Virus record (IMG/VR): IMGVR_UViG_2698536676_000001 | DNA: 14,243 nucleotides | Source: a virus | Taxonomy: Duplodnaviria; Heunggongvirae; Uroviricota; Caudoviricetes | Strand: one strand, 5' to 3' | Part shown: piece by piece, positions 1-14,243 of the stretch | Numbering within the stretch: the first letter of the stretch is position 1 | How the letters are laid out: each line of letters opens with the position of its first letter | Translations under genes and position numbers: made by a program | Notes under the pieces: generated by a model | What the model was told of the DNA's origin: nothing | Database searches by the model: none | The model's input: only the letters and a program-made list of their open reading frames with translations

Positions 1-65
1 AAAGTCGAATCTACAGACACTTCCGGCCTGCCAGTAACGTTTCCCGAACAACCAGAATGAGAGAA

Positions 66-93
66 GGCCCGCTATCGGGCCTTAATTTTTACT
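66..93 (+). terminator. Rho-independent terminator-like hairpin (GGCCCG-CTAT-CGGGCC) followed by T-rich tract; sits at a probable boundary between lambda-derived DNA and unrelated DNA
   Basis: Perfect 6-bp GC stem with 4-nt loop at 66-81, then TTAATTTTTACT on the plus strand; on the minus strand the same hairpin directly follows the TAA stop of the 826-aa ORF. A plus-strand reading frame ends at TGA 58-60 just upstream. Confidence 0.4.
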
Positions 94-2562
94 CTGGTTT
101 TTGTGGCCATTCAGGATTTGCCGTATCCACACGGCTGACCAGAACACTGTAGCGTTACGGGCCATGTCATACACTGCCTTCATCATCTGTGGACCTGGCA
201 GACCATTCGTACCGTCGTTCTGAATCACCACGTGATTGTTCTGATTAAAATTAATGCCTTCCGCCCGCCGCATCTGCGCCGGACTTCCGGCACCGCCCAC
301 ATAACCACCTTCCGCATAGCCGCGCATCAGCCGGTAGAGATTTCCCACGCCAATCCGGCTGGTTGCCTCCTTCGTGAAGACAAATTCACCACGGTGAACA
401 ATCCCCGCTGGCTCATATTTGCCGCCAGTTCCCGTAAATCCCCCGGTCGCAAAATGGAATTTTGCCGCAGCAGCCTGAATGGCTGTACCGCCTGACACTG
501 ATGCGCCACCACCGGCAGCACCGCCAATGGCGCTGCCGATACTCCCGACAATTCCCACCATTGCCTGCTTAAGCAGAATTTCTGTCATCATGGACAGCAC
601 GGAACGGGTGAAGCTGCGCCAGTTCTGCTCACTGCCGGTCAGCATCGCCGCCATATTCTGTGCAATACCATCAAAGGTCTGCGTGGCAGCACTTTTAACC
701 TGCGACATACTGTCCGTGGCGCTCTCTTTCCACTCACTCCAGCCTGACCTGAGGCCTGCCATCCAGCTCCCGCGAAGCTGGTCTTCAGCTGCCCAGGTCT
801 TTTTCTGCTCTGACATGACGTTATTCAGCGCCAGAGGATTATCGCCATACTGTTCCTTCAGGCGCTGTTCCGTGGCTTCCCTCGCTGCCTGCCGGTCAGT
901 CAGCCCCCGGTTTTTCGCATCAATGGCGGCCCGTTTTGCCCGTTGCTGCTGTGCGAATTTATCCGCCTGCTGTGCCAGCGCGTTCAGGTGTTCCTGATAG
1001 GTGACCTTGTCGCCAAGTGCAGCCAGCTGGCGTTTGTACTCCAGCGTCTCATCTTTATGCGCCAGCAGGGATTTCTCCTGTGCAGACAGCTGGCGACGTT
1101 GCGCCGCCTCCTCCAGTACCGCGAACTGACTCTCCGCCTTCCACAAATCCCGGCGCTGCTGGCTGATTTTTTCATTCGCTCCACTATGCTGCTCAAGCAT
1201 TTTTAGTTCAGCTTGTAACGCAAGAAGAGCTGCATGTGCTCGATCTTCCTGACGCTCTCCCGCAGCGGACTGCTTCGGCTTTTTCAGCGTCGCTTCATAG
1301 TCCTTTTTCGCCGCCGCCATCAGCGTGTTGTAATCTGCCTGCAGGATTTTCCCGTCTTTCAGTGCCTTGTTCAGTTCTTCCTGACGAGCGGTATATTTCT
1401 CCAGCGGCGTCTGCAGGCGTTCGTAAGCCTTCTGCGCCTCTTCGGTATATTTCAGCCGTGATGCCTCAGACTCGGCCCAGTCCTTTGCTGCCATCTCTCT
1501 GGCCTTTTCAAGATCGGCCTGCAACGTGGCGGCTGAAAGCCCAAGTTGCGCATTCGCTCTGTCCTCCCATGCTCCCCGGAGATTGGCAAGAAATGCTGAG
1601 GTTTTACCGCGCCGGTGGCTCCGGCTCTGATACCACTGCCATTTTTTGTCCGCCTCATCAAAAGCCTTTTCTGCTTTCTCCAGCATTCCCTGGGCAGTGT
1701 CCGGGCGACCAATATCCAGCACCGCATCCCACATGGATTTGAATGCCCGTGCTGTCCTGTCTGCCCAGGTCTCCAGCGTGCCCATGTTCTCTTTCAGGCG
1801 GAGGGTCTGGTCATCAAACCCTTTCGTTGCGGCCTCGTTCGCCGCCTGCAATGCCCCGGCTTCATCTCCGGAACGCTGCAACTGAGCAACATACGCAATC
1901 TGCTCCGCCGTCACGTTATGGAACTGACGTGCCATCGCTGTCAGTCCCGACGTCGGGTCTGTGGTCAGCTTCCCGAAGGCTTCAGCGACCTTGTCCACCT
2001 CCACGCCGGATGCAGAGGAGAAACGCGCCACACTCTGGCTGATCGCCTCAAACTGCTCACCACCACGCACACCGGCATTCACCAGCGCCGTCAGTGACTC
2101 GCTGGTCTGGTTAAACGTCAGCCCTGCCGCCTGCCCGGCTCTGGACAGGACCAGCATACGATCTGCCGTCAGTCCCGCCTGATTGCCGGAAAGGACCAGC
2201 GTTTTGTTGAAATCGGACAGGGTTGAGTTGCCCTGATACCAGGCATACGCCAGCGCACCGGTCGCCACCGCCAGCGAGGTGGCCCCCACCATCGGCAGGG
2301 TGATCGCACCGGCAAGCCCCCTGAACATGGGGATCATCCCGCCGAAGGAGTCCTTCACCTGACCACCCTGTTGCAGCAGGATCAGCCACGGACTTTGCCC
2401 GCCTGCAAGCTGCGTGGCCACGTCAGTGAACTGTGCAGGCAGCATACGCATGGCGGCTTTATACTGTCCGACGGAAATGGCCATTGCGGCGGCACCGGGC
2501 ACCGCCGTTCTGCTGATACGGCTGAGGTTTTCAACGGCCTGCTCAAGACCTTTTATGGCCAT
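82..2562 (-). CDS. H: Tail tape measure protein, chimeric: N-terminal ~29 aa of lambda tail completion protein Z fused in frame to lambda H (tape measure) from about H residue 47; C-terminal ~24 aa appear unrelated to H
   Basis: 826-aa ORF. N-terminus MAIKGLEQAVENLSRIS.TAVPGAAAMAI matches the remembered start of lambda gpZ; from ISVGQYKAAMRMLPAQFTDVATQLAGGQSPWLILLQQGG onward it follows lambda gpH (coiled-coil middle, Gly-rich hydrophobic segment, FATGGFTGTGG motif). GGGGGA Shine-Dalgarno 5 nt upstream of ATG; 11-nt gap to FII as for lambda FII-Z. Confidence 0.85.
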   Translation of the reverse strand: MAIKGLEQAVENLSRISRTAVPGAAAMAISVGQYKAAMRMLPAQFTDVATQLAGGQSPWLILLQQGGQVKDSFGGMIPMFRGLAGAITLPMVGATSLAVATGALAYAWYQGNSTLSDFNKTLVLSGNQAGLTADRMLVLSRAGQAAGLTFNQTSESLTALVNAGVRGGEQFEAISQSVARFSSASGVEVDKVAEAFGKLTTDPTSGLTAMARQFHNVTAEQIAYVAQLQRSGDEAGALQAANEAATKGFDDQTLRLKENMGTLETWADRTARAFKSMWDAVLDIGRPDTAQGMLEKAEKAFDEADKKWQWYQSRSHRRGKTSAFLANLRGAWEDRANAQLGLSAATLQADLEKAREMAAKDWAESEASRLKYTEEAQKAYERLQTPLEKYTARQEELNKALKDGKILQADYNTLMAAAKKDYEATLKKPKQSAAGERQEDRAHAALLALQAELKMLEQHSGANEKISQQRRDLWKAESQFAVLEEAAQRRQLSAQEKSLLAHKDETLEYKRQLAALGDKVTYQEHLNALAQQADKFAQQQRAKRAAIDAKNRGLTDRQAAREATEQRLKEQYGDNPLALNNVMSEQKKTWAAEDQLRGSWMAGLRSGWSEWKESATDSMSQVKSAATQTFDGIAQNMAAMLTGSEQNWRSFTRSVLSMMTEILLKQAMVGIVGSIGSAIGGAAGGGASVSGGTAIQAAAAKFHFATGGFTGTGGKYEPAGIVHRGEFVFTKEATSRIGVGNLYRLMRGYAEGGYVGGAGSPAQMRRAEGINFNQNNHVVIQNDGTNGLPGPQMMKAVYDMARNATVFWSAVWIRQILNGHKNQSKN

Positions 2563-2573
2563 ACATCCCCCTT

Positions 2574-2927
2574 TCAGCGGCGACGGTTAACGGCAGGCGG
2601 TACGCCCCGCCCAAGCCAGAGATGACAGCTTCCGCCATCATCCGGCGAAATCCGGTCTATCCAGAAGTTTTCCTCACCGATGGTCAGCGTGTCGCCGCGC
2701 CGCAGCTGCCGCACATCATCAGTCCGGACAAACAGGGACGGGCTGGAGCCTTCAACGCGCACGCCCTGTCCGGCATAGCTGATATTTTCAGGGTCATCAA
2801 AAACACCACGTATCACAGCACCGGACTGCTCACCGGATGTCATGGTGGCTGACGTTCCCATGTACCCGCGTATCGTTTCATCGGCGCAGGCAATGGCAGC
2901 ATCGAACAGGTTATCGAAATCAGCCAC
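2574..2927 (-). CDS. FII: Head-tail joining protein FII (lambda gpFII-like)
   Basis: 117-aa ORF MADFDNLFDAAIA.ADETIRGYMGTSAT... matching remembered lambda gpFII in sequence and length; position after FI as in lambda. Confidence 0.9.
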   Translation of the reverse strand: MADFDNLFDAAIACADETIRGYMGTSATMTSGEQSGAVIRGVFDDPENISYAGQGVRVEGSSPSLFVRTDDVRQLRRGDTLTIGEENFWIDRISPDDGGSCHLWLGRGVPPAVNRRR

Positions 2928-2938
2928 AGCGCCTCCCG

Positions 2939-3334
2939 TTATTGCATTCTGGCCAGGCCACGTTCTGTCATTTCGGCTGCCACACCGGCAGAGACACGAA
3001 ACGCCGTTCCCGGCAGCACAAATGCCACAGGTTCATCCCGCGTGGCGTGAAGTGCATCGGTATGCAGCGTCACCAGTGCCACAACCGTGACCAGAGCAGC
3101 CGTATCAGTCACGGTATCCGTCTGTGCTGATACCACCTCATTTTCATGTCCGGTCAGCGAATTTTCCGGGCTGACAGACGTGTCCTGACCGGCTGCGTCA
3201 TCCGTGTCATCAAGCTCCTCTTCCAGCTCTGCCACACGGAGCGCCAGTTCTTCTTTCGTCCCCGTCAGGCTGACATCACGGTTCAGTTGCTCACCCAGCG
3301 ACCGGAGACGGGCAATCAGTTCATCTTTCGTCAT
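2939..3334 (-). CDS. FI: DNA packaging / head assembly protein FI (lambda gpFI-like)
   Basis: ORF track gives 144 aa, but the start is placed at internal MTKDELIARLRSLGEQLNRDVSLTGTKEELALRVAEL (131 aa), preceded by GGAGG 5 nt upstream; 41-nt gap from E stop as in lambda. Confidence 0.88.
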   Translation of the reverse strand: MTKDELIARLRSLGEQLNRDVSLTGTKEELALRVAELEEELDDTDDAAGQDTSVSPENSLTGHENEVVSAQTDTVTDTAALVTVVALVTLHTDALHATRDEPVAFVLPGTAFRVSAGVAAEMTERGLARMQ

Positions 3335-3375
3335 GGACTCCTCCACAGAGAGACAATGGCCCCGAAGGGCCATGA

Positions 3376-4401
3376 TTACGCCAGTTGAACGGACACGAAC
3401 TCATCAGGATCAGCCAGCAGCATCAGCGGTGCTGACTGAATCATGGTGAACTCTCGCGCCGGATCGCCGGATGTCTTCCAGTTTTTCGGATAACGGGGAG
3501 ACGCATTAATACCCTCACTCAATGCATCCGCATCCTGAATACAGCCATAGGTGCGCAGACCGCGTGCATGAGTGTTCCCCAGCACCATCGTGTTGTCCGG
3601 CAGGAAGTTCTTTTTGACGCCGTTTTCCACGTACTGTCCGGAATACACGACGATGGCCACATCGCCATACATTCCCTTATAAGACACCGCTTTGCCCAGG
3701 TCTTTTACCGCTGTCTCCAGTTCGGAATGAGAGCCGCGACGGGTATCCAGCTTCTCCCTGACGGCTTTGAAGGAACGGAACAGCGCCCAGCCTTTCGGGT
3801 CAAACACGATGATATTCACCACGCCGCTGGCGTTCAGCGCGTAGGCTTCGATATCGTCGGTCGGGTCATACGTGGACTTGTCACGCTTGCTCCACTCCGT
3901 GCCGCCGGACTGCGTGATGTTGTTCGCCGCACTGCGGCCCATATCCACCTCGACCGGATCGAAGGCTTCACCGGTCATGGTGTATTTGCCCTTGAGCACG
4001 GCAGAAACGGCCTGCATCTCTTCGACCTGAGCAATGGCCTGCTCTTCGTCACGCATGTTCTGCATGATGATGCGACGGCGGCGGTAAGCCGGGTCCGCCA
4101 GATTCTGTGGATCTTCATCCGGCAGGCGACGCAGGGTCATCTGCGGATTCACCTCATGCTTCGGCTTGACATATCCCGGCGTAAATTCGGAGGTGGAGCC
4201 GCCACGGGAGCGGATAACCTCACCGGAAACAATCGGCGAAACGTACAGCGCCATATTTACCAATCCCGGAATTTGTGAGAGATAGACTTTCTCCGTGGTG
4301 AAGGGATAGCTTTCACGGAAAAAGAGACGCAGAAACAGCGGATCAAACTTAAATTTCTGCTCATTTGCCGCCAGCAGCTGGGCGGTTGTGTACATCGACA
4401 T
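3376..4401 (-). CDS. E: Major capsid protein E (lambda gpE-like, HK97 fold)
   Basis: Start placed at MSMYTTAQLLAANEQKFKFDPLFLRLFF... giving 341 aa, the lambda gpE length; near-identical to remembered lambda gpE along its length. The upstream 9 codons of the 350-aa ORF are regarded as non-coding. Confidence 0.95.
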   Translation of the reverse strand: MSMYTTAQLLAANEQKFKFDPLFLRLFFRESYPFTTEKVYLSQIPGLVNMALYVSPIVSGEVIRSRGGSTSEFTPGYVKPKHEVNPQMTLRRLPDEDPQNLADPAYRRRRIIMQNMRDEEQAIAQVEEMQAVSAVLKGKYTMTGEAFDPVEVDMGRSAANNITQSGGTEWSKRDKSTYDPTDDIEAYALNASGVVNIIVFDPKGWALFRSFKAVREKLDTRRGSHSELETAVKDLGKAVSYKGMYGDVAIVVYSGQYVENGVKKNFLPDNTMVLGNTHARGLRTYGCIQDADALSEGINASPRYPKNWKTSGDPAREFTMIQSAPLMLLADPDEFVSVQLA

Positions 4402-4413
4402 AAAAAAATCCCG

Positions 4414-4435
4414 TAAAAAAAGCCGCACAGGCGGC
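4414..4435 (-). terminator. Hairpin plus U-tract in the D-E intergenic region (terminator-like or attenuator / mRNA-stabilising structure)
   Basis: Minus strand reads GCCGC-CTGT-GCGGC followed by TTTTTTT, 55-nt intergenic space as in lambda. Function not inferable from sequence; E must still be expressed, so full termination is unlikely. Confidence 0.3.
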
Positions 4436-4456
4436 CTTTAGTGATGAAGGGTAAGG

Positions 4457-4789
4457 TTAAACGATGCTGATTGCCGTTCCGGCAAACGCGGTCCGTTTTT
4501 TCGTCTCATCGCTGGCAGCCTCCGGCCAGAGCACATCCTCATAACGGAACGTGCCGGACTTGTAGAACGTCAGCGTGGTGCTGGTCTGGTCAGCAGCAAC
4601 CGCAAGAATGCCAACGGCAGCACCGTCGGTGGTGCCATCCCACGCAACCAGCTTACGGGTGGAGGTATCCGGCATCAGCGGGGTCATTGCAGGCGCTTTC
4701 GCACTCAATCCGCCGGGCGCGGTTGCGGTATGAGCCGGGTCACTGTTGCCCAGCGGCTGGTCATGGGTAAAGGTTTCTTTGCTCGTCAT
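4457..4789 (-). CDS. D: Capsid decoration protein D (lambda gpD-like)
   Basis: Start placed at [37 protein letters not shown]... giving 110 aa (lambda gpD length); matches remembered gpD; 9-nt gap after C stop as in lambda. Confidence 0.95.
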
Positions 4790-4798
4790 AAACATCCC

Positions 4799-5404
4799 TT
4801 ACACTGGTGTGTTCAGCAAATCGTTAACGGCATCAGATGCCGGGTTACCTGCAGCCAGCGGTGCCGGTGCCCCCTGCATCAGACGATCCAGCGCAGTGTC
4901 ACTGCGCGCCTGTGCACTCTGTGGTGCTGCGGCCAGAATGCGGCGGGCCGTTTCCACGGTCATACCGGGGGTTTCTGCCAGCACGCGTGCCTGTTCTTCG
5001 CGTCCGTGAGCCTCCTCACAGTTGAGGATCCCCATAATGCGGCTGTTTTCTGCCGCAACCGCTGCGGTGATCTGCGCGTTCACGTCCGGCTGCGCCGCGC
5101 TGGCGTTTTCGCCATCCGTCGCTGGCTCCATGCTGGTGATGTCAGCCTGCGAGGCAGTAGCTGAAGCAGTTGTTGATTGAGTCTCTTTGGTCATTCGCCC
5201 TCCTGAGAGACGGGATTTACGTGCATCCAGTGCATCACGCATGACGGTGATCGCATCGGTGCTGTTAACAAGTTCATCAGCCAGTCCGGCATCAATGGCC
5301 TCCTGACCGCTGTACACTGCAGCTTCGGTATCCAGCACAGCCTGCACGGACAGGCCGGTATATGCCGACACCTTCTGCGCAAACATCCGGCGGGTTGCGT
5401 CCAT
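4799..5404 (-). CDS. Nu3: Scaffolding protein Nu3, in-frame internal start within C
   Basis: Internal ATG (MDATRRMFAQKVSAYTG...) yields exactly 201 aa to the C stop, the remembered lambda Nu3 length. Nesting of Nu3 inside the C frame is established for lambda; independent initiation here is inferred. Confidence 0.55.
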   Translation of the reverse strand: MDATRRMFAQKVSAYTGLSVQAVLDTEAAVYSGQEAIDAGLADELVNSTDAITVMRDALDARKSRLSGGRMTKETQSTTASATASQADITSMEPATDGENASAAQPDVNAQITAAVAAENSRIMGILNCEEAHGREEQARVLAETPGMTVETARRILAAAPQSAQARSDTALDRLMQGAPAPLAAGNPASDAVNDLLNTPV

Positions 5405-6098
5405 CCGGGACTGCAGTGTCTCCCGGACGTCATCAGGAAGATGGCTGTAGGGGTTGCCATCCACCTTATGGCTGCCGCTGTAAATCAGCGTGATTTCCAC
5501 CCCCTGTTTCTCCAGCGCAGCACCGTAATTACTGTGAGCCATCATGACGCCGATGGAGCCTGTCCGGGCGGTCTGTGTGACCAGACGCCGGGAGGCGGCG
5601 CTGGCAAGCAGCTGACCTGCACTGCAGTTCATGTCGTTGGCCAGCGCCCATACCGGTTTTATGTCACGCACACGGGCGATGATGTCAGCACAGTCAAATG
5701 CTCCCGCCACCATTCCGCCTGGCGTGTCCATATCCAGCAGAATGCCGTCCACCATCGGGTCGCTGGCAGCCTGTTGCAGACGGGCGATAATGCCGTTGTA
5801 ACCGGTCATCCCCGAATACGGCTTCAGCGCCCGCGTCCGGCTGACCAGCGTGCCGGACACCGGCAGCACGGCGATGCCGTTCATGACCTGATAACTGCGG
5901 GCCTGTCGTGGTCCGTCACCATCACCGGATAACGCCAGCGTCGCGGGTGCCTCTCCGGCTGTCAGGCTGTCGCCGGACACCGCATCCGTCAGGCGGCTGA
6001 TCCCAAGCTGGCCTGCAAGCGCACAAAAGAAAACCCGCGCATAGGCGGGTTCAAGCATCAGCGGCTCATTAAAAGCCATGCTGGCAATATGCGGGAGA

Positions 6099-6118
<20 letters not shown>
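4799..6118 (-). CDS. C: Prohead protease / scaffold protein C (S49 ClpP-like serine peptidase family, lambda gpC-like)
   Basis: GTG start at 6116-6118 preceded by AGGAGGAG, giving 439 aa (VTAELRNLPHIASMAFNEPLMLEPAYARVFF...), the lambda gpC length; start overlaps the 3' end of B by 20 nt as in lambda. The ORF-track extension to 6253 is upstream read-through in the same frame. Confidence 0.9.
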
Positions 6119-9093
<2,975 letters not shown>

Positions 9094-9131
9094 GTCCTCC
9101 TGAAAATTACCTCATGACCAGAAATCAACAC

Positions 9132-10202
9132 TTACCCCCTGAAGCCCGGTGGAATTTCGGTATCCGGTTCAGAAATATGATTCACACAACGCTGGTTGTT
9201 CGTGCCGCTTACCGGGAGCAGCCAGGGGTTTTCAAAATTCCGGTCCGGTCCAAAAAACGTCGTCGCTCGCTGAACAAATTCCGTTCCCGTTTTCCCGGTA
9301 GCCGCAAGGTATCTTGCGTAACGCCTCACGCCATCCAGCATGGCCTCTGGTGACACCCCCTCGCGTAATCTGGCCTTCCAGGCACTGAAAGCGGATTTCT
9401 TCGGGTTTGCCCCAGCACGCAACGGGTATTCCCGCCAGACCTGTTCGAACACATCCGGATAATCCACTCGTCTCACAGGCTGCCCGGTGTTTTCCGTGAC
9501 TACCCGATCGGCTTCCCGCTGAATGGCGGAATCGGCTTCAGGCTGCTGCAGTTGGTGTGATTGCTCCGGCCTTGCGGTCATCACCTGCTGCACAGCGCCC
9601 GAATCGGCTTTCAGCGCATACGCTGAATCGGCTTCCGGTGTCGTGCCTGCTGGCTGACCAAGATTGACGGTCTGAACATCCCCTGCCTGGTTCGTGGCGT
9701 TTTTTACGCCATGGACCATAGTGTTTTGATCTTCTTGATCTGTATCTTTATCTGTATCTTTATCTGTCGTGACTCGTCGTGACATGTGCGTGACATTTCG
9801 TGACGCGCCGTGACAATCGCCATTTTGTTCCCGCTTTCTTTCCCTCTCTCGCTGCGCCCTCTTGCGCTCTGCAGGAGATTTTGCGGTTTGCGAAATATTG
9901 CCGTTGTCCTCTTTAAGCACCTGGCGTTTTTCCCATCCAGTGATTAAATCACCATCAAGTACCCGCCCCTGCATCGTCTGCAAAATTGAATCAATTACCT
10001 CTTCTGTCACGTCGAGCGCACTTGCCAAATCTTCTGTCGTGACATCAATGTGACCTCGCGTGACATTTCGTGACGCGCTCACCAGGAGGTGGATATACAC
10101 TGCCATCACTGTTGCAATTGACTGCCCTGACACCCTGGCAATTGTTCGCCACTTAGGGTCATTTGGCATGTCATGCCATAATCTGAGCCAGGCGTTAGCC
10201 AT
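9132..10202 (-). CDS. Phage replication initiation / replisome organiser-like protein (Rac/e14 type), with internal iteron-encoded linker
   Basis: 356 aa from ATG at 10202 (GAGGTG Shine-Dalgarno; the track's 10208 is a GTG two codons upstream). N-terminal region MANAWLRLWHDMPNDPKWRTIARVSGQSIATV... looks like a DNA-binding domain; low-complexity acidic linker (DKDTDKDTDQED); position directly downstream of cro and ydaT-like genes. Family assignment is from gene context and memory, not a search. Confidence 0.6.
   Translation of the reverse strand: MANAWLRLWHDMPNDPKWRTIARVSGQSIATVMAVYIHLLVSASRNVTRGHIDVTTEDLASALDVTEEVIDSILQTMQGRVLDGDLITGWEKRQVLKEDNGNISQTAKSPAERKRAQRERERKREQNGDCHGASRNVTHMSRRVTTDKDTDKDTDQEDQNTMVHGVKNATNQAGDVQTVNLGQPAGTTPEADSAYALKADSGAVQQVMTARPEQSHQLQQPEADSAIQREADRVVTENTGQPVRRVDYPDVFEQVWREYPLRAGANPKKSAFSAWKARLREGVSPEAMLDGVRRYARYLAATGKTGTEFVQRATTFFGPDRNFENPWLLPVSGTNNQRCVNHISEPDTEIPPGFRG
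9739..9815. repeat. Iteron-like array 1: 2.5 tandem copies of 12-bp TCTGTATCTTTA followed by five CGTGAC repeats at 10-11 bp spacing
   Basis: Direct reading: tandem unit at 9739-9750 and 9751-9762 with a partial third copy; CGTGAC at 9768, 9778, 9789, 9799, 9809. Lies inside the replication gene. Confidence 0.6.
10038..10078. repeat. Iteron-like array 2: four (C/T)GTGAC repeats at 10-11 bp spacing, sharing an exact 21-bp segment GCGTGACATTTCGTGACGCGC with array 1
   Basis: CGTGAC at 10038, 10059, 10069 and TGTGAC at 10049; the 21-mer at 10058-10078 is identical to 9788-9808. Confidence 0.6.
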
Positions 10203-10273
10203 ACTCACCTCTTCTGATACCGAATCTTTTTACTCACGAGTTGCCGGAAGTGATTCGATATGGCTATTATCAC

Positions 10274-10699
10274 TCAATGCACTGCCACAGCATTTCCTGC
10301 CGGGCCACCACGGTTCATCTGATTGAAACCGGCGATTGCCACTGCGACAAAATCATCAGCGTCTCTCACCAGTCGCTCCCGCGTCTCCACCAGCTCCCGA
10401 AAATAAGCTGAACTGTGGCTGCGCATTCTGGCCACCAGCAAAGGTGGCATTGCCTTTTCGATCGCTGGTAACAACGCCTGAATTTTTTCAACTGCATCAG
10501 GGGTGTCTTTCTCTATCCAGCGGAAAATTTTCTGGGTATTGCGAGCCAGGGCTTCCGGATGGCTGTCGTCATACAGTTCTGGGAACGTCATACCCAACTC
10601 AAAATAAGCCTGGGTTATTCCAGCTGCTGGAACTTTTTCGCCATCAGGACGCGCCCAGGCATTCATCGCCATGCGGATGTGTTCATGCTTGATTTTCAT
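10274..10699 (-). CDS. YdaT-like prophage regulatory protein (CII-position protein of Rac-type immunity regions)
   Basis: 141 aa, begins MKIKHEHI and ends ...AVAVH, resembling remembered Rac YdaT termini; start codon overlaps the stop of the upstream cro-like gene (ATGA), implying translational coupling. Confidence 0.6.
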   Translation of the reverse strand: MKIKHEHIRMAMNAWARPDGEKVPAAGITQAYFELGMTFPELYDDSHPEALARNTQKIFRWIEKDTPDAVEKIQALLPAIEKAMPPLLVARMRSHSSAYFRELVETRERLVRDADDFVAVAIAGFNQMNRGGPAGNAVAVH

Positions 10700-10926
10700 G
10701 AATCCCCCCCTTGGTTAGAAGGCGGATTATGATCAGAACCGGGAATGACAACCGTCGGTATGTGTAACTCATATTTGAGCGCCCCGGCAGTGACTGCCTG
10801 AATTAGCAACGCCCATTTCCACGGAACCTCTTCCCCCCACATGCTGACTGTGGTTTTTGACGTTCCTAGAGCTGCGGCTGTTTTAACAACTCCGCCAAAA
10901 TAGCCTAATACTTCTGATTTTTTCAT
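10696..10926 (-). CDS. Cro/YdaS-like HTH DNA-binding protein (lytic-side repressor)
   Basis: Start placed at internal MKKSEVLGYFGGVVKTAAALGTSKTTVSMW (76 aa) because GGAG lies 8 nt upstream; helix-turn-helix signature; divergent from the CI-like gene across an operator-containing intergenic region. Confidence 0.65.
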   Translation of the reverse strand: MKKSEVLGYFGGVVKTAAALGTSKTTVSMWGEEVPWKWALLIQAVTAGALKYELHIPTVVIPGSDHNPPSNQGGDS

Positions 10927-11017
10927 GAGTCGCTCCATAAAACTGAACGCCAAAAGTTTAATAATCAAAACCAAAGAAAGTCAAGAAACAAAACCATCTG
11001 TGTTTTAAAATCAAAAC
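10927..11017. promoter_or_regulatory. Divergent immunity control region (OR-like): two 18-bp operator-like sites plus candidate PR-like and PRM-like promoters
   Basis: Related sites AGTTTAATAATCAAAACC (10955-10972) and TGTTTTAAAATCAAAACA (11001-11018), each TGTTTT-N6-AAAACA-like and 15/18 identical. Minus-strand TTGACT -35 at 10979-10984 with a -10 overlapping site 1 (cro side). Plus-strand TAAAAT -10 at 11006-11011, immediately before the cI-like ATG (repressor side). Confidence 0.45.
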
Positions 11018-11656
11018 ATGAGCAAGCAAACAATATCTGAACGCATAACCCAACGTATGCATGCGCTAAACCTGAAAGGCAAAGACCTTGTCAATGCCAC
11101 TGGCGCATCAAAAGGCTCCGTAAGTCAATGGATGAACGGTGGAGGAGCGCCGTCCTCGCGTTACATAAGTTCACTGGCAAAGATATTGAAAGTAAACGAA
11201 AATTGGCTTCTTAATGGAGGAGAGTTAAATACAGGTGATTCGCTTGATCTATCTTTACCGCCGATAAAAACGGTTCCGCTACTATCACTTCAGCAGGCAG
11301 CAAGCTGGAGTGATTATATGAAAAATTCCTCAATAACCTCTTGTGTGCAGCTTGTCGGAGAAATCCCGGCCAATACCTTTGCAGTTGTTCTAGAGAGTGA
11401 CAGTATGTCAACATCTGGTGGGGGAGTTTCCATCCCAAATGGTTCAACAGTTTTTGTTGATCCCGATCGAACCGTACAACCAGGAAATATTGTCCTTGCC
11501 TTACCCAAAGGGACCACAACACCTGTCATTCGTAAACTGGAGATAGAAGGGCCGGATATTCTTTTAGTCCCCACGAATCCTCGCTACCCTTCAATTATGC
11601 TGGATGATCTATCTTGCATATTGGGCGTATGCTTTAAAATTCAACAAGATATTTAA
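11018..11656 (+). CDS. CI-like prophage repressor, HTH (XRE) N-terminal domain plus S24 LexA-like peptidase C-terminal domain
   Basis: 212 aa; HTH in ATGASKGSVSQWMNGGGAPSSRYISSLAKIL; S24 signature with Ser in LESDSMS and Lys in VIRKLEIEG; divergent from the cro-like gene; no Shine-Dalgarno upstream. Confidence 0.85.
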   Translation: MSKQTISERITQRMHALNLKGKDLVNATGASKGSVSQWMNGGGAPSSRYISSLAKILKVNENWLLNGGELNTGDSLDLSLPPIKTVPLLSLQQAASWSDYMKNSSITSCVQLVGEIPANTFAVVLESDSMSTSGGGVSIPNGSTVFVDPDRTVQPGNIVLALPKGTTTPVIRKLEIEGPDILLVPTNPRYPSIMLDDLSCILGVCFKIQQDI

Positions 11657-11722
11657 CCAACCTCATCTATTTGATTAACTGTATGCCATCGTGGTGATGG
11701 CTTAACAGCTGCCTGCTTAAAA

Positions 11723-11769
11723 TGTTTTGATAAAAAAACATTGACCTGTAAAGTTCATTTTTCTAAACT
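11723..11769 (+). promoter_or_regulatory. PL-like promoter with adjacent operator-like site driving the downstream ydfA-dicF-dicB operon
   Basis: TGTTTTGATAAAAAAACA (11723-11740, same TGTTTT-N6-AAAACA outline as the OR sites) directly abuts a TTGACC -35 (11741-11746), 17-bp spacer, TAAACT -10 (11764-11769). Confidence 0.4.
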
Positions 11770-11948
11770 TCATTCATTCCCTCACTCCACCCCACAGAAT
11801 GCAGGGCAATACTTCGAGTTACCCGGCAGTGGTCAGGGGTTAAGTAGCCAGCCCGAGGCGTAAGAACATGACGGCAGGGTTCAACTTTAATAACTATGCA
11901 GCAGGTTTTTGTTCCGCTACCCCGGCGTTAAGGGGAAATGAGGTCAAC

Positions 11949-12101
11949 ATGGATACTATCGATCTTGGCAACAACGAATCTCTGGTGTGCGGCGTGTTTC
12001 CCAACCAGGACGGCACGTTCACCGCGATGACGTATACCAAAAGCAAAACGTTTAAAACCGAAGCTGGCGCGCATCGCTGGTTAGCAAGAAACTCTGACTG
12101 A
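11949..12101 (+). CDS. ydfA: YdfA-like small protein (first gene of dicBF-type operon), function unknown
   Basis: 50 aa from ATG 11949 (GAGG 6 nt upstream): MDTIDLGNNESLVCGVFPNQDGTFTAMTYTKSKTFKTEAGAHRWLARNSD, resembling remembered Qin YdfA. A longer 77-aa form from 11868 is possible but has a weaker ribosome-binding site. Confidence 0.55.
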   Translation: MDTIDLGNNESLVCGVFPNQDGTFTAMTYTKSKTFKTEAGAHRWLARNSD

Positions 12102-12112
12102 TGAGGTTGACG

Positions 12113-12751
12113 ATGGAATTTAAAGATTTACCTACTTCAATCCAGGAGATTGCAGCACACACACTTCGTCATCGTCTGAACGAACTTGCATTGGAATCGG
12201 TAACGAAAAAAGACACTGATAATATGGCTCGTAATGTGCGCGATGCGTTTACCGGATTGTATTTCTGTGCGTCTGTAAATAAACACGACTCAGATAGTGT
12301 GGCAAATAAAATTGCAGAAACGACAGCGCAAAACATCAATACGAAACCAACGGAAGAAGAAATTGATCAGTTTGCTCATGATGCTGGTTTAAAAAACAAG
12401 AAAGAAAAATCGCCATATGCGGGGAACATGTTTGTTTATGACAATCTCATCAGAATTCGTGGCGAAATTCCGGCGGAATACCTGGCAAGAGTCCATCAGG
12501 CATTGCTTAAAAATCTGGAAACAGAATTATTTGATGGCAACACTAACGGTTTCTTCATGGTATCAGGCCTTGAGAAAGACTGGGATGCAGAAAAACGCTG
12601 GAATGTTGCCACATGGTTATTCAGTAACAGAGCCGCTGCCCTGGAAGCTTCGGCATGTATTTGCGGCCTGTTCTTAACAGACCACAAATATAATCTGGAT
12701 GTGTACAGTTATATTTACGCTGAACACGGTCCGCTCTGGATTGACTGGTAA
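12113..12751 (+). CDS. Uncharacterised 212-aa protein in the early operon; no recognisable catalytic or transmembrane motifs
   Basis: ORF track 12101-12751; start preferred at MEFKDLPTS (ATG 12113, GAGG 6 nt upstream). The alternative ATG at 12101 overlaps the ydfA-like stop (TGATG). AT-rich codon usage distinct from the lambda head block. Confidence 0.6.
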   Translation: MEFKDLPTSIQEIAAHTLRHRLNELALESVTKKDTDNMARNVRDAFTGLYFCASVNKHDSDSVANKIAETTAQNINTKPTEEEIDQFAHDAGLKNKKEKSPYAGNMFVYDNLIRIRGEIPAEYLARVHQALLKNLETELFDGNTNGFFMVSGLEKDWDAEKRWNVATWLFSNRAAALEASACICGLFLTDHKYNLDVYSYIYAEHGPLWIDW

Positions 12752-12961
12752 TTATAAGGAAACACCAGCAGGGCCGAGGCGACCAACTGAACGATTAAAA
12801 TCAATAATGCCATTATAAAGGACATTATTTAATTTATCGTCGAATGCTGATTCTGTGAGCCTCAACTCTGAATGAGTTTTTAATAACCCTGATTGCCTGA
12901 GTTGATTTACCAGGCATTCAATCTGTTTTTCAATAAGCGGATTTCTTTTTTTGTTTGGCAT
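12752..12961 (-). CDS. Possible convergent small protein (69 aa), hypothetical
   Basis: Minus-strand ORF MPNKKRNPLIEKQIECLVNQLRQSGLLK... with GGAGG 6 nt upstream of the ATG at 12961; its stop abuts the stop of the 212-aa gene. Could be a spurious ORF in AT-rich DNA. Confidence 0.3.
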   Translation of the reverse strand: MPNKKRNPLIEKQIECLVNQLRQSGLLKTHSELRLTESAFDDKLNNVLYNGIIDFNRSVGRLGPAGVSL

Positions 12962-13296
12962 TTTATCCTCCATTGAGGTTCTGGGTTAAAAATGGAGACC
13001 AACACGCTGCCACGTGTGGTCGTGCGCCGGACACGGATAAGAATCCGGTACTGACAGTTTACTGAAAGGATATATCCCTGAAAAGCCAGGGCATAACGCG
13101 AAAGCGCACGGCGAAGTTCGTCTCACTGTACGGTGTCGTTAAATTTAATTCGACCGTGCGCTTCCGGTTGTGGCACTCCGCGAAATGGCGCGGCGGTAAG
13201 TATGGCGGGGTTATTCCTCCCCCATTGAGACACCGGGTTGCCAGGTTGACCATACGCTTAAGTGACAACCCCGCTGCAACGCCCTCTGTTATCAAT

Positions 13297-13349
13297 TTTC
13301 TGGTGACGTTTGGTGGTATCAGTTTTACTCCGTGACTGCTCTGCTGCCC
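13297..13349 (+). ncRNA. dicF: DicF small RNA homologue (antisense regulator of ftsZ and other mRNAs)
   Basis: TTTCTGGTGACGTTTGGTGGTATCAGTTTTACTCCGTGACTGCTCTGCTGCCC followed by TTTTT matches the remembered 53-nt DicF of Qin, with two substitutions in the terminal stem that keep pairing as G-U wobbles. Confidence 0.75.
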
Positions 13350-13359
13350 TTTTTAAAGT

Positions 13360-13505
13360 GAATTTTGTGATGCGGTGAATGCGGCTGAGCGCACGCGGAA
13401 CAGTTAAAACCAAAAACAGTGTTATGGATGGGTTCTCTGTATCCGGCGTTAATTGTTAACTGGTTAACGTCACCTGGAGGCACCAGGCACCGCATCACAA
13501 AATTC
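13360..13505 (+). promoter_or_regulatory. Long inverted repeat: perfect 18-bp arms (13360-13377, 13488-13505) flanking 110 bp; probable RNase III processing stem between dicF and dicB
   Basis: GAATTTTGTGATGCGGTG and its exact reverse complement CACCGCATCACAAAATTC; the interior holds a GTTAAC-TG-GTTAAC palindrome. Lies between the DicF terminator and the dicB ribosome-binding site. Confidence 0.6.
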
Positions 13506-13523
13506 ATTGTTGAGGGTGCGATA

Positions 13524-13712
13524 ATGAAAACGTTATTACCAAACGTTAATACGTCTGAAGGTTGTTTTGAAATTGGTGTCACTATCAGTAACCCAGTATT
13601 TACTGAAGATGCCATTAACAAGAGGAAACAAGAACGGGAGCTATTGGATAAAATATGCATTGTTTCAATGCTGGCCCGTTTACGCCTGATGCAAAAAGGA
13701 TGCTGGCAATGA
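13524..13712 (+). CDS. dicB: Cell division inhibitor DicB (MinC-activating)
   Basis: 62 aa MKTLLPNVNTSEGCFEIGVTISNPVFTEDAINKRKQERELLDKICIVSMLARLRLMQKGCWQ matching remembered Qin DicB; GAGGG 7 nt upstream of ATG. Confidence 0.85.
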   Translation: MKTLLPNVNTSEGCFEIGVTISNPVFTEDAINKRKQERELLDKICIVSMLARLRLMQKGCWQ

Positions 13713-13912
13713 ATACTACATTTGCACTTGTTCTGACGGTTTTTCTTGTTTCCGGTGAACCGGTTGACATGGTTACTGGCGTATACGGCTCAATGAAAGA
13801 ATGCATGGTTGCCGCAGTGGAACAGAAAATTCCCGGTAACTGTTATCCGGTCGATAAAGTTATTCACATGGATAATAACGAAATCCCGGCAGGACTTAAA
13901 ACAGCACCGTAA
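13709..13912 (+). CDS. ydfD: YdfD-like small membrane protein (reported lysis-inducing protein in Qin)
   Basis: 67 aa from ATG 13709, overlapping the dicB stop as ATGA: MNTTFALVLTVFLVSGEPVD...; hydrophobic N-terminal segment; resembles remembered YdfD. Confidence 0.6.
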   Translation: MNTTFALVLTVFLVSGEPVDMVTGVYGSMKECMVAAVEQKIPGNCYPVDKVIHMDNNEIPAGLKTAP

Positions 13913-13992
13913 TTAATATCCGGTTTCATTTTTATATGCCAGCAATGGCAGGGATTTGTTCACCCTTAAATCTGTAATGAGGTTAAAACAAA

Positions 13993-14243
13993 ATGAGTAA
14001 AGTCTTTATTTGCGCCGCTATTCCTGACGAACTGGCAACAAGGGAAGAAGGCGCTGTGGCTGTAGCCACAGCCATTGAAGCTGGCGACGAACGCCGTGCT
14101 CGAGCAAAATTTCACTGGCAATTCCTGGAACATTATCCGGCTGCTCAGGACTGCGCTTATAAATTTATTATCTGCGAGGATAAGCCCGGTATACCCCGCC
14201 CTGCCCTCGATTCCTGGGATGCTGAATATATGCAGGAAAACCG
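13993..14243 (+). CDS. ydfE: YdfE-like protein, 5' part only (ORF runs off the window end)
   Basis: Open frame from ATG 13993 (GAGG upstream) with no stop to the window end: MSKVFICAAIPDELATREEGAVAVATAIEAGDERRARAKFHWQFLEHYPAAQDCAYKF...; resembles the gene following ydfD in Qin. Confidence 0.55.
   Translation, partial: MSKVFICAAIPDELATREEGAVAVATAIEAGDERRARAKFHWQFLEHYPAAQDCAYKFIICEDKPGIPRPALDSWDAEYMQEN

Follow-up and report, generated by a model that had tools for sequence, protein, structure and literature searches.

The perfect inverted repeat that lies between the small RNA DicF and the division-inhibitor gene dicB in this prophage sequence is the extended closing helix, P1, of a conserved structured RNA resembling STnc100, and the same element is present before several division-inhibitor genes. 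The window, by which we mean the whole 14,243-nt stretch of DNA that was analysed, carries real and mostly known biology, namely an uncommon allele of DicF together with the duplex at which RNase III probably processes the dicBF transcript, to which we add the assignment of that duplex to a conserved RNA. Both DicF and DicB are textbook examples of prophage-encoded products that block division of the host cell. In the explanation that we consider likely as a whole, the rare DicF allele arose by drift, the spacer that follows it is STnc100-like, and P1 is cut by RNase III, all within a division-inhibition operon.

The stretch around these features would represent the middle of such an operon in a lambdoid prophage, running from a ydfA-like gene through DicF and the structured spacer to dicB (Table 1). 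DicF is found upstream of dicB with prophage genes around them, as in a lambdoid prophage operon, and dicB is in frame with an open reading frame at 13419-13712. DicF itself matches the full Rfam model RF00039 (model positions 1-52) at 13298-13349 on the plus strand with 66.9 bits, where the gathering score is 48; the K-12 DicF scores 76.7 bits on the same model. We also note that the ribosome-binding region of dicB at 13512-13519 reads GAGGGTGC in the window, GAGGACGC in K-12 and GAGGGCGC in other copies.

Table 1. Features of the DicF-dicB region, in window coordinates
Feature	Position	Strand	Basis
Upstream imperfect long hairpin, probable RNase III site for the 5' end of the 190-nt precursor	13088..13177	+	Fold
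DicF small RNA, 53 nt, rare double-U allele	13297..13349	+	RF00039 and alignment to K-12
DicF Rho-independent terminator: stem-loop 13312-13348 and U-tract UUUUU 13350-13354	13312..13354	+	ViennaRNA fold
STnc100-like RNA: P1, P2 (13381-13396), variable P3 (13397-13444), P4 (13445-13471), P5 (13473-13487)	13357..13508	+	Rfam, fold, covariation
P1 5' strand (5' arm of inverted repeat)	13357..13377	+	Repeat search, fold, covariation
P1 3' strand (3' arm of inverted repeat)	13488..13508	+	Repeat search
dicB Shine-Dalgarno GAGGG	13512..13516	+	Sequence; K-12 has GAGGA there
dicB, cell division inhibitor, 62 aa	13524..13712	+	RefSeq on the identical stretch in L002 and L247 (WP_001301390.1)

A repeat search finds two arms of 19 nt, at 13359-13377 and 13488-13506, that are 100% complementary and separated by 110 nt, and the pairs G13358.U13507 and A13357-U13508 extend them to 21 continuous pairs. 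By comparison, when 13100-13700 is shuffled 200 times, perfect inverted repeats reach 13 nt at most. The initial annotation had described a perfect repeat of 18 bp, with up to about 21 pairs when G-U is allowed, flanking 110 bp and placed between DicF and the ribosome-binding site of dicB. The perfection, the extended length, the spacing and the position all agree with our measurements, and the perfect arms prove one pair longer than stated. The Shine-Dalgarno sequence begins 4 nt past the end of P1 at 13508, and the ATG follows at 13524. What that reading missed is that the duplex does not stand by itself but closes a conserved structured RNA.

This assignment rests on agreement among an Rfam alignment, thermodynamic folds and covariation. 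In a permissive Rfam scan, 13361-13501 aligns with the STnc100 model (RF02076) at 39.2 bits and an E-value of 5.5e-7; this score is under the gathering score of 47, and for this reason we call the element STnc100-like and not a member of the family. Similar sub-threshold matches (E 1e-4 to 5e-7) are obtained for the window, the K-12 Qin prophage, Rac-like loci and a phage-plasmid. Copies of the same type score between 34 and 48 bits on RF02076, with a single one (L183, 47.8 bits) reaching the gathering score, and scores of 67-73 bits are obtained for the four stand-alone STnc100 genes that were checked. The fold of 13359-13506 has a predicted energy of -63.7 kcal/mol (z -6.8) and agrees with the Rfam structure, in which a closing helix surrounds four hairpins; the helix, the hairpins and the conserved GGUGAAU and CACCNGGAGGCACCNGGCACC motifs are present by all three lines of evidence.

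The likeness to STnc100 (also PasD) thus consists of a closing helix that runs from GGUGAAU to CACCNGGAGGCACCNGGCACC, four internal hairpins, and occurrence in prophages of Enterobacteriaceae. The differences are equally clear. The first hairpin is GCGGCU..GCGCACGC in the window, whereas STnc100 has CCCCC..GGGG, and the closing helix is 21-22 bp in elements of the window type as against 6-11 bp in STnc100. The window element is also embedded in an early-left operon, whereas STnc100 is a stand-alone RNA of the late region. A consensus scan finds no promoter-like site on the plus strand, a negative result that does not rule out a promoter, and no terminator between 13508 and dicB. In the K-12 operon, no internal promoter was found (PMC10448788). 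Terminators follow the stand-alone STnc100 copies L204 and L206. Our literature search found no paper that describes the dicF-dicB or the kilS-kilR spacer as a relative of STnc100, and this identity of the dicF-dicB spacer appears to be undescribed.

The structure is further supported by the pattern of variation among homologues, which were collected by scanning viral and genome collections for the conserved 3' motif, giving 66 distinct copies that were aligned. The genome-wide pattern scan gave many chance matches in GC-rich genomes, and only those with an upstream GGTGAAT motif were kept; all but one of the retained matches come from named Enterobacterales. RNAalifold recovers P1, P2, P4 and P5 from this alignment, and P3 through its three closing pairs only. 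Across the structure, 98% of cells are paired in the 66 homologues, and both sides have changed in 16 of 40 pairs, compared with 6.1 +/- 1.5 in column shuffles. When the partners are slid by one to three columns, the both-sided changes drop to 3-7 and the pairing falls from 98% to 29-44%. P1 alone has changed on both sides in 11 of its 20 pairs with 97.8% of cells paired. The covariation in the STnc100-like RNA, and in P1 within it, is strong, and we hold with high confidence that P1 functions as an RNA helix.

The distribution of the element extends well beyond the window. Some megablast matches among complete E. coli genomes span only 13346-13508, without DicF or dicB; in Rac-like prophages they lie directly ahead of kilR (L003, L004), and they also occur in a phage-plasmid (L005). 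More generally, in many lambdoid prophages the element follows a DicF-like small RNA and precedes dicB or kilR, both of which encode division inhibitors. We further note that the conserved core of the element also occurs in P1-like phages and phage-plasmids, including phages D6 and P7, L088 and L005 (3001-3121), where it is unannotated, has a closing helix of 8-9 bp and carries unrelated outer arms. The L005 copy has a tRNA-Ser gene on one side and an SPFH-domain gene on the other. The E. coli genome L135 shows the reverse order (about 1429-1585, minus strand), with the KilS-like sequence TGCTGTGTGTAGTCTTGGCGG placed after an element whose closing helix has 9 bp.

This occurrence in different contexts, together with perfect 19-nt inverted repeats at the two ends of a 110-bp segment, could suggest that the repeat works as DNA, either by bounding a miniature mobile element or by serving as a site for protein binding or recombination, since the module occurs upstream of kilR and in P1-like elements without DicF or dicB. 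We consider this very improbable. The flanks AAAG and TTGT show no target-site duplication, the lambdoid copies all share one orientation and one operon position while the other copies were found only in P1-like phage or plasmid genomes, and those P1-like copies keep the inner core with the outer arms replaced. The arms vary by compensatory and G-U-compatible changes, which is the signature of RNA. The mobile-element reading in particular was rejected for its lack of flanking direct repeats, its single lambdoid operon position and orientation, and this RNA-type variation.

Within the RNA reading, the length of P1 depends on context. Before dicB, the helix has 21 contiguous pairs (median); before kilR and two other small ORFs, it consists of 10 pairs, one bulged A and 12 pairs. 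In copies from Citrobacter (L130), Lelliottia (L182) and L213, the helix is again 21-22 bp with an outer half of different sequence. Indeed, all copies before dicB, kilR or the two other ORFs in which the whole helix could be scored have a P1 of 21-22 bp, the few dicB-type loci that scored shorter being ones with contig ends or a mismatch near the helix top. The closing helix of stand-alone STnc100 is 6-11 bp in 19 of 20 copies (the twentieth was mis-scored, as 1), and copies in P1-like phages and plasmids have 8-9 bp. A helix of about two turns whose length survives sequence turnover, and which occurs only in a polycistronic embedding, points to a factor that reads its length. The initial annotation would have been contradicted by absence of the repeat from homologous operons; the helix is instead kept there, at 21-22 bp and with covariation.

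RNase III is a candidate for such a factor. The enzyme accommodates about 22 bp, and the two positions that separate its staggered cuts usually form base pairs, at least one of them G-C (PMC6212723). With 21 continuous pairs, P1 falls within the near-continuous duplex of about 20-22 bp expected of a substrate and would be an RNase III substrate of one enzyme length. A 72-nt DicF made by RNase III is reported for K-12, as the 1990 work of Faubladier et al. is relayed in PMC5069750 (Balasubramanian et al., 2016) and in a 2022 review (PMC9438474). Simple arithmetic on these two secondary accounts, adding 19 nt to the end of the 53-nt form, lets us place the 3' end of this species near 13368, which is midway along the 5' arm of the repeat and 12 pairs above the base of P1. 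A cut at 13368|13369 would leave G13367-C13498 and U13368-A13497 between the two cuts, in keeping with the pair rule for this putative site. The partner cut would fall at 13498|13499 by the rule of a 2-nt 3' overhang (PMC6212723).

The 72-nt DicF relayed by these secondary accounts, with its probable end inside the helix, supports the RNase III reading, which is in this sense already known for K-12. The proposal in the initial annotation that the long duplex is of the kind cleaved by RNase III is supported by this DicF species, by the position of its probable end in the 5' arm, and by the conservation of the helix at 21-22 bp with covariation. Our confidence in cleavage of P1 by RNase III is moderate to high. 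A 2023 study of the operon in J Bacteriol describes RNase III only at an upstream site and the downstream cut goes unmentioned; a 190-nt DicF species needs RNase III according to the same work (PMC10448788). Counting 190 nt back from the 3' end of DicF would place the upstream end at about 13160, on the 3' side of an upstream hairpin. This hairpin has the inverted repeat I4 as its core (13102-13111 and 13154-13163), and the fold of 13085-13180 has an energy of -36.1 kcal/mol (z -2.4).

The order of events that we propose is as follows. Transcripts that read through the DicF terminator would fold into the STnc100-like RNA of about 150 nt closed by the 21-bp P1, and a cut in P1 would yield the 72-nt DicF and separate it from dicB. 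The pair of cuts would release an RNA of about 130 nt (13369-13498) with a 9-bp closing helix, and the dicB mRNA would then start near 13499 with a leader of about 25 nt, which may in turn affect dicB expression. The segment 13369-13498 (130 nt) does fold with a 9-bp closing helix, at -50.3 kcal/mol, and this stem length is that of stand-alone STnc100 RNAs. Our confidence that the inner RNA of about 130 nt is a stable product is moderate to low.

P1 might instead do no more than close a structured leader or small RNA, being left uncut by RNase III here, and it would then insulate or stabilise the 5' region of the dicB mRNA or set access to its ribosome-binding site. The end of the helix just ahead of the Shine-Dalgarno sequence would suit such a role, as would the minimum-free-energy fold of 13297-13530, in which, immediately beyond P1, the 3' half of the DicF terminator is base-paired to the Shine-Dalgarno region. 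The stand-alone STnc100 RNAs are also closed by a helix, so that a closing stem is explicable without a nuclease. The stand-alone copies, however, need only 6-11 bp, and the 21-22 bp are specific to operon-embedded copies and kept through sequence turnover. An RNase III-dependent 3' end of K-12 DicF 19 nt past the terminator is, moreover, published, to the extent that the secondary accounts convey it, and by inspection the Shine-Dalgarno pairing is not conserved in kilR-type copies. An uncut stem is therefore unlikely in our view, and cleavage of P1 by RNase III remains the reading that we prefer. We also considered separately that the 3' half of the DicF terminator (GCUGCCCUU) masks the dicB Shine-Dalgarno sequence through its pairing with 13512-13519; this candidate was set aside, as the pairing appears in one minimum-free-energy fold only and inspection of the kilR-type sequences does not find it conserved.

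Classical intercistronic RNase III sites include those of the phage T7 early mRNA, the lambda N leader and the rRNA processing stems. P1 resembles them in being a duplex of about two turns in a polycistronic phage transcript and, like the rRNA stem, a long-range helix that encloses an RNA freed by the cut. It differs from them in that the window helix encloses a 110-nt STnc100-type domain and in that cleavage is reported only indirectly, through the 72-nt DicF.

The closest known system is the dicBF operon of Qin (DicF, RF00039; Faubladier 1990; Balasubramanian 2016), which has in common with the window the position of DicF upstream of dicB, the terminator fold, the predicted ftsZ pairing, the downstream helix and an upstream RNase III hairpin in an equal relative position. 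The window differs from it in two C-to-U changes of the DicF stem (4.8 kcal/mol weaker), two G-C pairs for G-U in the helix, GAGGG for GAGGA at the Shine-Dalgarno sequence, and other upstream genes. The two helix differences lie at 13373 and 13491, where most copies have only C or U opposite G and all four combinations occur. With two G-U pairs in K-12 where the window has G-C, the two RNase III substrates are not identical.

A second system with the same layout is KilS-kilR of the Rac prophage (kilS b4833; Bar et al. 2021, PMC8175672), in which a small RNA ending CCGCCCUUUUU is followed by AAAG, the structured element and the gene for an FtsZ inhibitor. In MG1655 (L249, 1,418,229-1,418,502, minus strand) KilS ends at a DicF-type terminator, CCGCCCTTTTT, followed by AAAG, an element with a 22-bp closing helix, and kilR. 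This arrangement makes KilS the positional counterpart of DicF. KilS differs in its 5' seed and in the downstream gene, which is kilR and not dicB, and in its helix a bulged A lies beside the pair equivalent to that of the putative 13368|13369 cut of the window. The shared terminator, AAAG and element indicate that DicF-dicB and KilS-kilR are two versions of one cassette.

We further note that the small RNAs 60-70 nt upstream of the element in other copies (L003-L125) have several 5' seeds, including the DicF seed TTTCTGGTGAC, a Rac type GCTGTGTGTAGTC and a third type CCCATGTTGATTACC, and that they have the terminator TTGGCGG...CCGCCCTTTTTAAAG in common. The small RNAs of the DicF and KilS type look like a modular family with swappable seeds. 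We tentatively propose, as an idea that we rate at somewhat less than an even chance, a three-part division-inhibition cassette of lambdoid prophages, in which a small RNA of the DicF or KilS type comes with an STnc100-like RNA and a gene for an FtsZ inhibitor, such as dicB, kilR or others. The helix of 21-22 bp might then serve as an RNase III ruler that excises an STnc100-family RNA of about 130 nt, with a 9-bp stem like that of the stand-alone RNAs, and so uncouples the small RNA from the toxin mRNA.

The DicF of the window is a variant in its own right. Alignment to the DicF of the Qin prophage in a K-12 derivative (NEB5-alpha, L001) gives identity at 51 of 53 positions and exactly two differences, C-to-T at 13314 (nt 18; GGCGG to GGTGG) and C-to-T at 13345 (nt 49; GCCGCC to GCTGCC). 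The variation relative to K-12 suspected in the initial annotation is therefore real. The alignment and the fold likewise show that the changes lie on opposite strands of the terminator stem and turn Watson-Crick pairs into G-U pairs. In the Rfam and ViennaRNA structures, they convert two neighbouring G-C pairs into the wobbles U18.G50 and G19.U49. All four possible alleles give an identical hairpin fold in ViennaRNA, with energies of -15.9 kcal/mol for K-12, -14.0 and -13.7 for the single changes and -11.1 for the window allele; the window hairpin is thus 4.8 kcal/mol weaker than that of K-12, and the single changes weaken it additively.

These two changes are not compensatory, as they had been called, since they fall in separate pairs, each weakens the hairpin and neither repairs the damage done by the other. 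Nor is the argument drawn from them, that the RNA structure is under selection in this element, supported on this evidence: the weakening is additive, C-to-T opposite G is the mildest change that a stem can take, the allele is rare, and pairing with ftsZ is also a possible constraint. About 60% of random transition pairs in the 53-nt DicF would keep the fold, by our estimate. Taken alone, the two C-to-T changes do not support selection on the structure of DicF. Selection on the stem is visible elsewhere in the family, as L009 and L032 have a true compensatory U-A (GGUGG...CCACC) at the pair that is U.G in the window. A link between the DicF stem (U/U in the window) and the repeat (C/C), which are the reverse in K-12, by gene conversion or alternative pairing was ruled out, given that all four repeat haplotypes (C/C, C/T, T/C and T/T) occur with a K-12-type DicF.

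The K-12 allele of DicF represses ftsZ translation and is bound by Hfq (PMC5069750). For the pairing with ftsZ, RNAduplex predicts -39.5 kcal/mol for the window allele and -38.5 kcal/mol for K-12, over ftsZ positions -28 to +25. In this prediction, U18 adds a pair with A+12 of ftsZ and U49 makes a G-U with G-25. Both changed positions are thus predicted to pair with the ftsZ mRNA, so that structure is not the sole possible constraint, and the window allele disrupts neither the hairpin fold nor the predicted pairing with ftsZ. We also observe that nt 10-29 of DicF (13306-13325) are complementary to dicB codons 2-7 (13527-13546), and that the C-to-U at 13314 fills a C.A mismatch. The predicted DicF-dicB duplex is -29.5 kcal/mol in the window, equalled by 8 of 300 shuffles, and -25.0 kcal/mol in K-12, where it is equalled by 50 of 300 shuffles and is not significant. 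The counterpart in Rac, KilS with kilR, shows no complementarity above shuffles. We set aside the idea that DicF acts as an antisense regulator of its own dicB, as the complementarity is moderate for the window allele only and not significant for K-12 or KilS-kilR.

A search of 5,426 complete E. coli genomes for exact 57-mers places the window allele in 24 of 3,923 matching records and the K-12 allele in 3,055 of 3,976. A one-change allele, with U in the 3' arm only, is exact in 18 records and occurs in swine strains (L246). The one-change intermediate (L246) therefore exists, and the double allele is rare. The records with the window allele come largely from human isolates, several of them with diarrhoeal or ETEC strain names, and in the two copies examined (L002 and L247) the prophage adjoins potC. 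Two sequential C-to-U transitions would have produced the adjacent G-U pairs, with the fold and the ftsZ pairing kept and the hairpin weaker.

One could also read the two changes as adaptive tuning, in which a weaker terminator allows more read-through into the spacer and dicB while U18 adds pairs with A+12 of ftsZ and with dicB codons 2-7. The loss of 4.8 kcal/mol in the hairpin, the slightly better predicted ftsZ duplex with its new U18-A pair, and the move of the DicF-dicB duplex from -25.0 to -29.5 kcal/mol (with the 8 of 300 shuffles that equal it) speak for such tuning. These energy differences are small, however, and ignore intramolecular structure, and KilS-kilR lacks complementarity above shuffles. 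The 24 records fall largely in one group of human diarrhoeal isolates, as would be the case for a hitchhiking variant, and the carrier prophage looks rearranged. We judge adaptive tuning to be quite unlikely, a little more so than an uncut P1, and read the window allele as tolerated drift in one prophage lineage and not as a compensatory event. As a rare variant with a weaker terminator, the allele is of minor interest.

The prophage around this operon has features of its own. At 12101-12973, a hypothetical ORF of 212 aa on the plus strand and an ORF of about 70 aa on the opposite strand replace the K-12 ydfB and ydfC, and the latter ORF would be transcribed antisense by an operon of the dicBF type. 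Phage structural genes (tape measure, portal, terminase and capsid) are a few kb away from the region of immunity and replication, and the listed matches include neither lysis genes nor Q. Positions 1-8979 and 8972-14243 of the window match different places in strain ATCC 43896, and 5158-14243 is contiguous and identical in NZ_LR883050.1. The prophage looks rearranged or deleted.

The splitting of the transcript shared by DicF and DicB decides the amount of each. The long-range helix is the probable structural basis for the reported RNase III 3' processing of DicF, and the same helix with its enclosed RNA precedes the Rac prophage gene kilR and, in several genera, further small genes. If it is true that the STnc100-like RNA is released, these operons would make a third regulatory product that nobody has sought.
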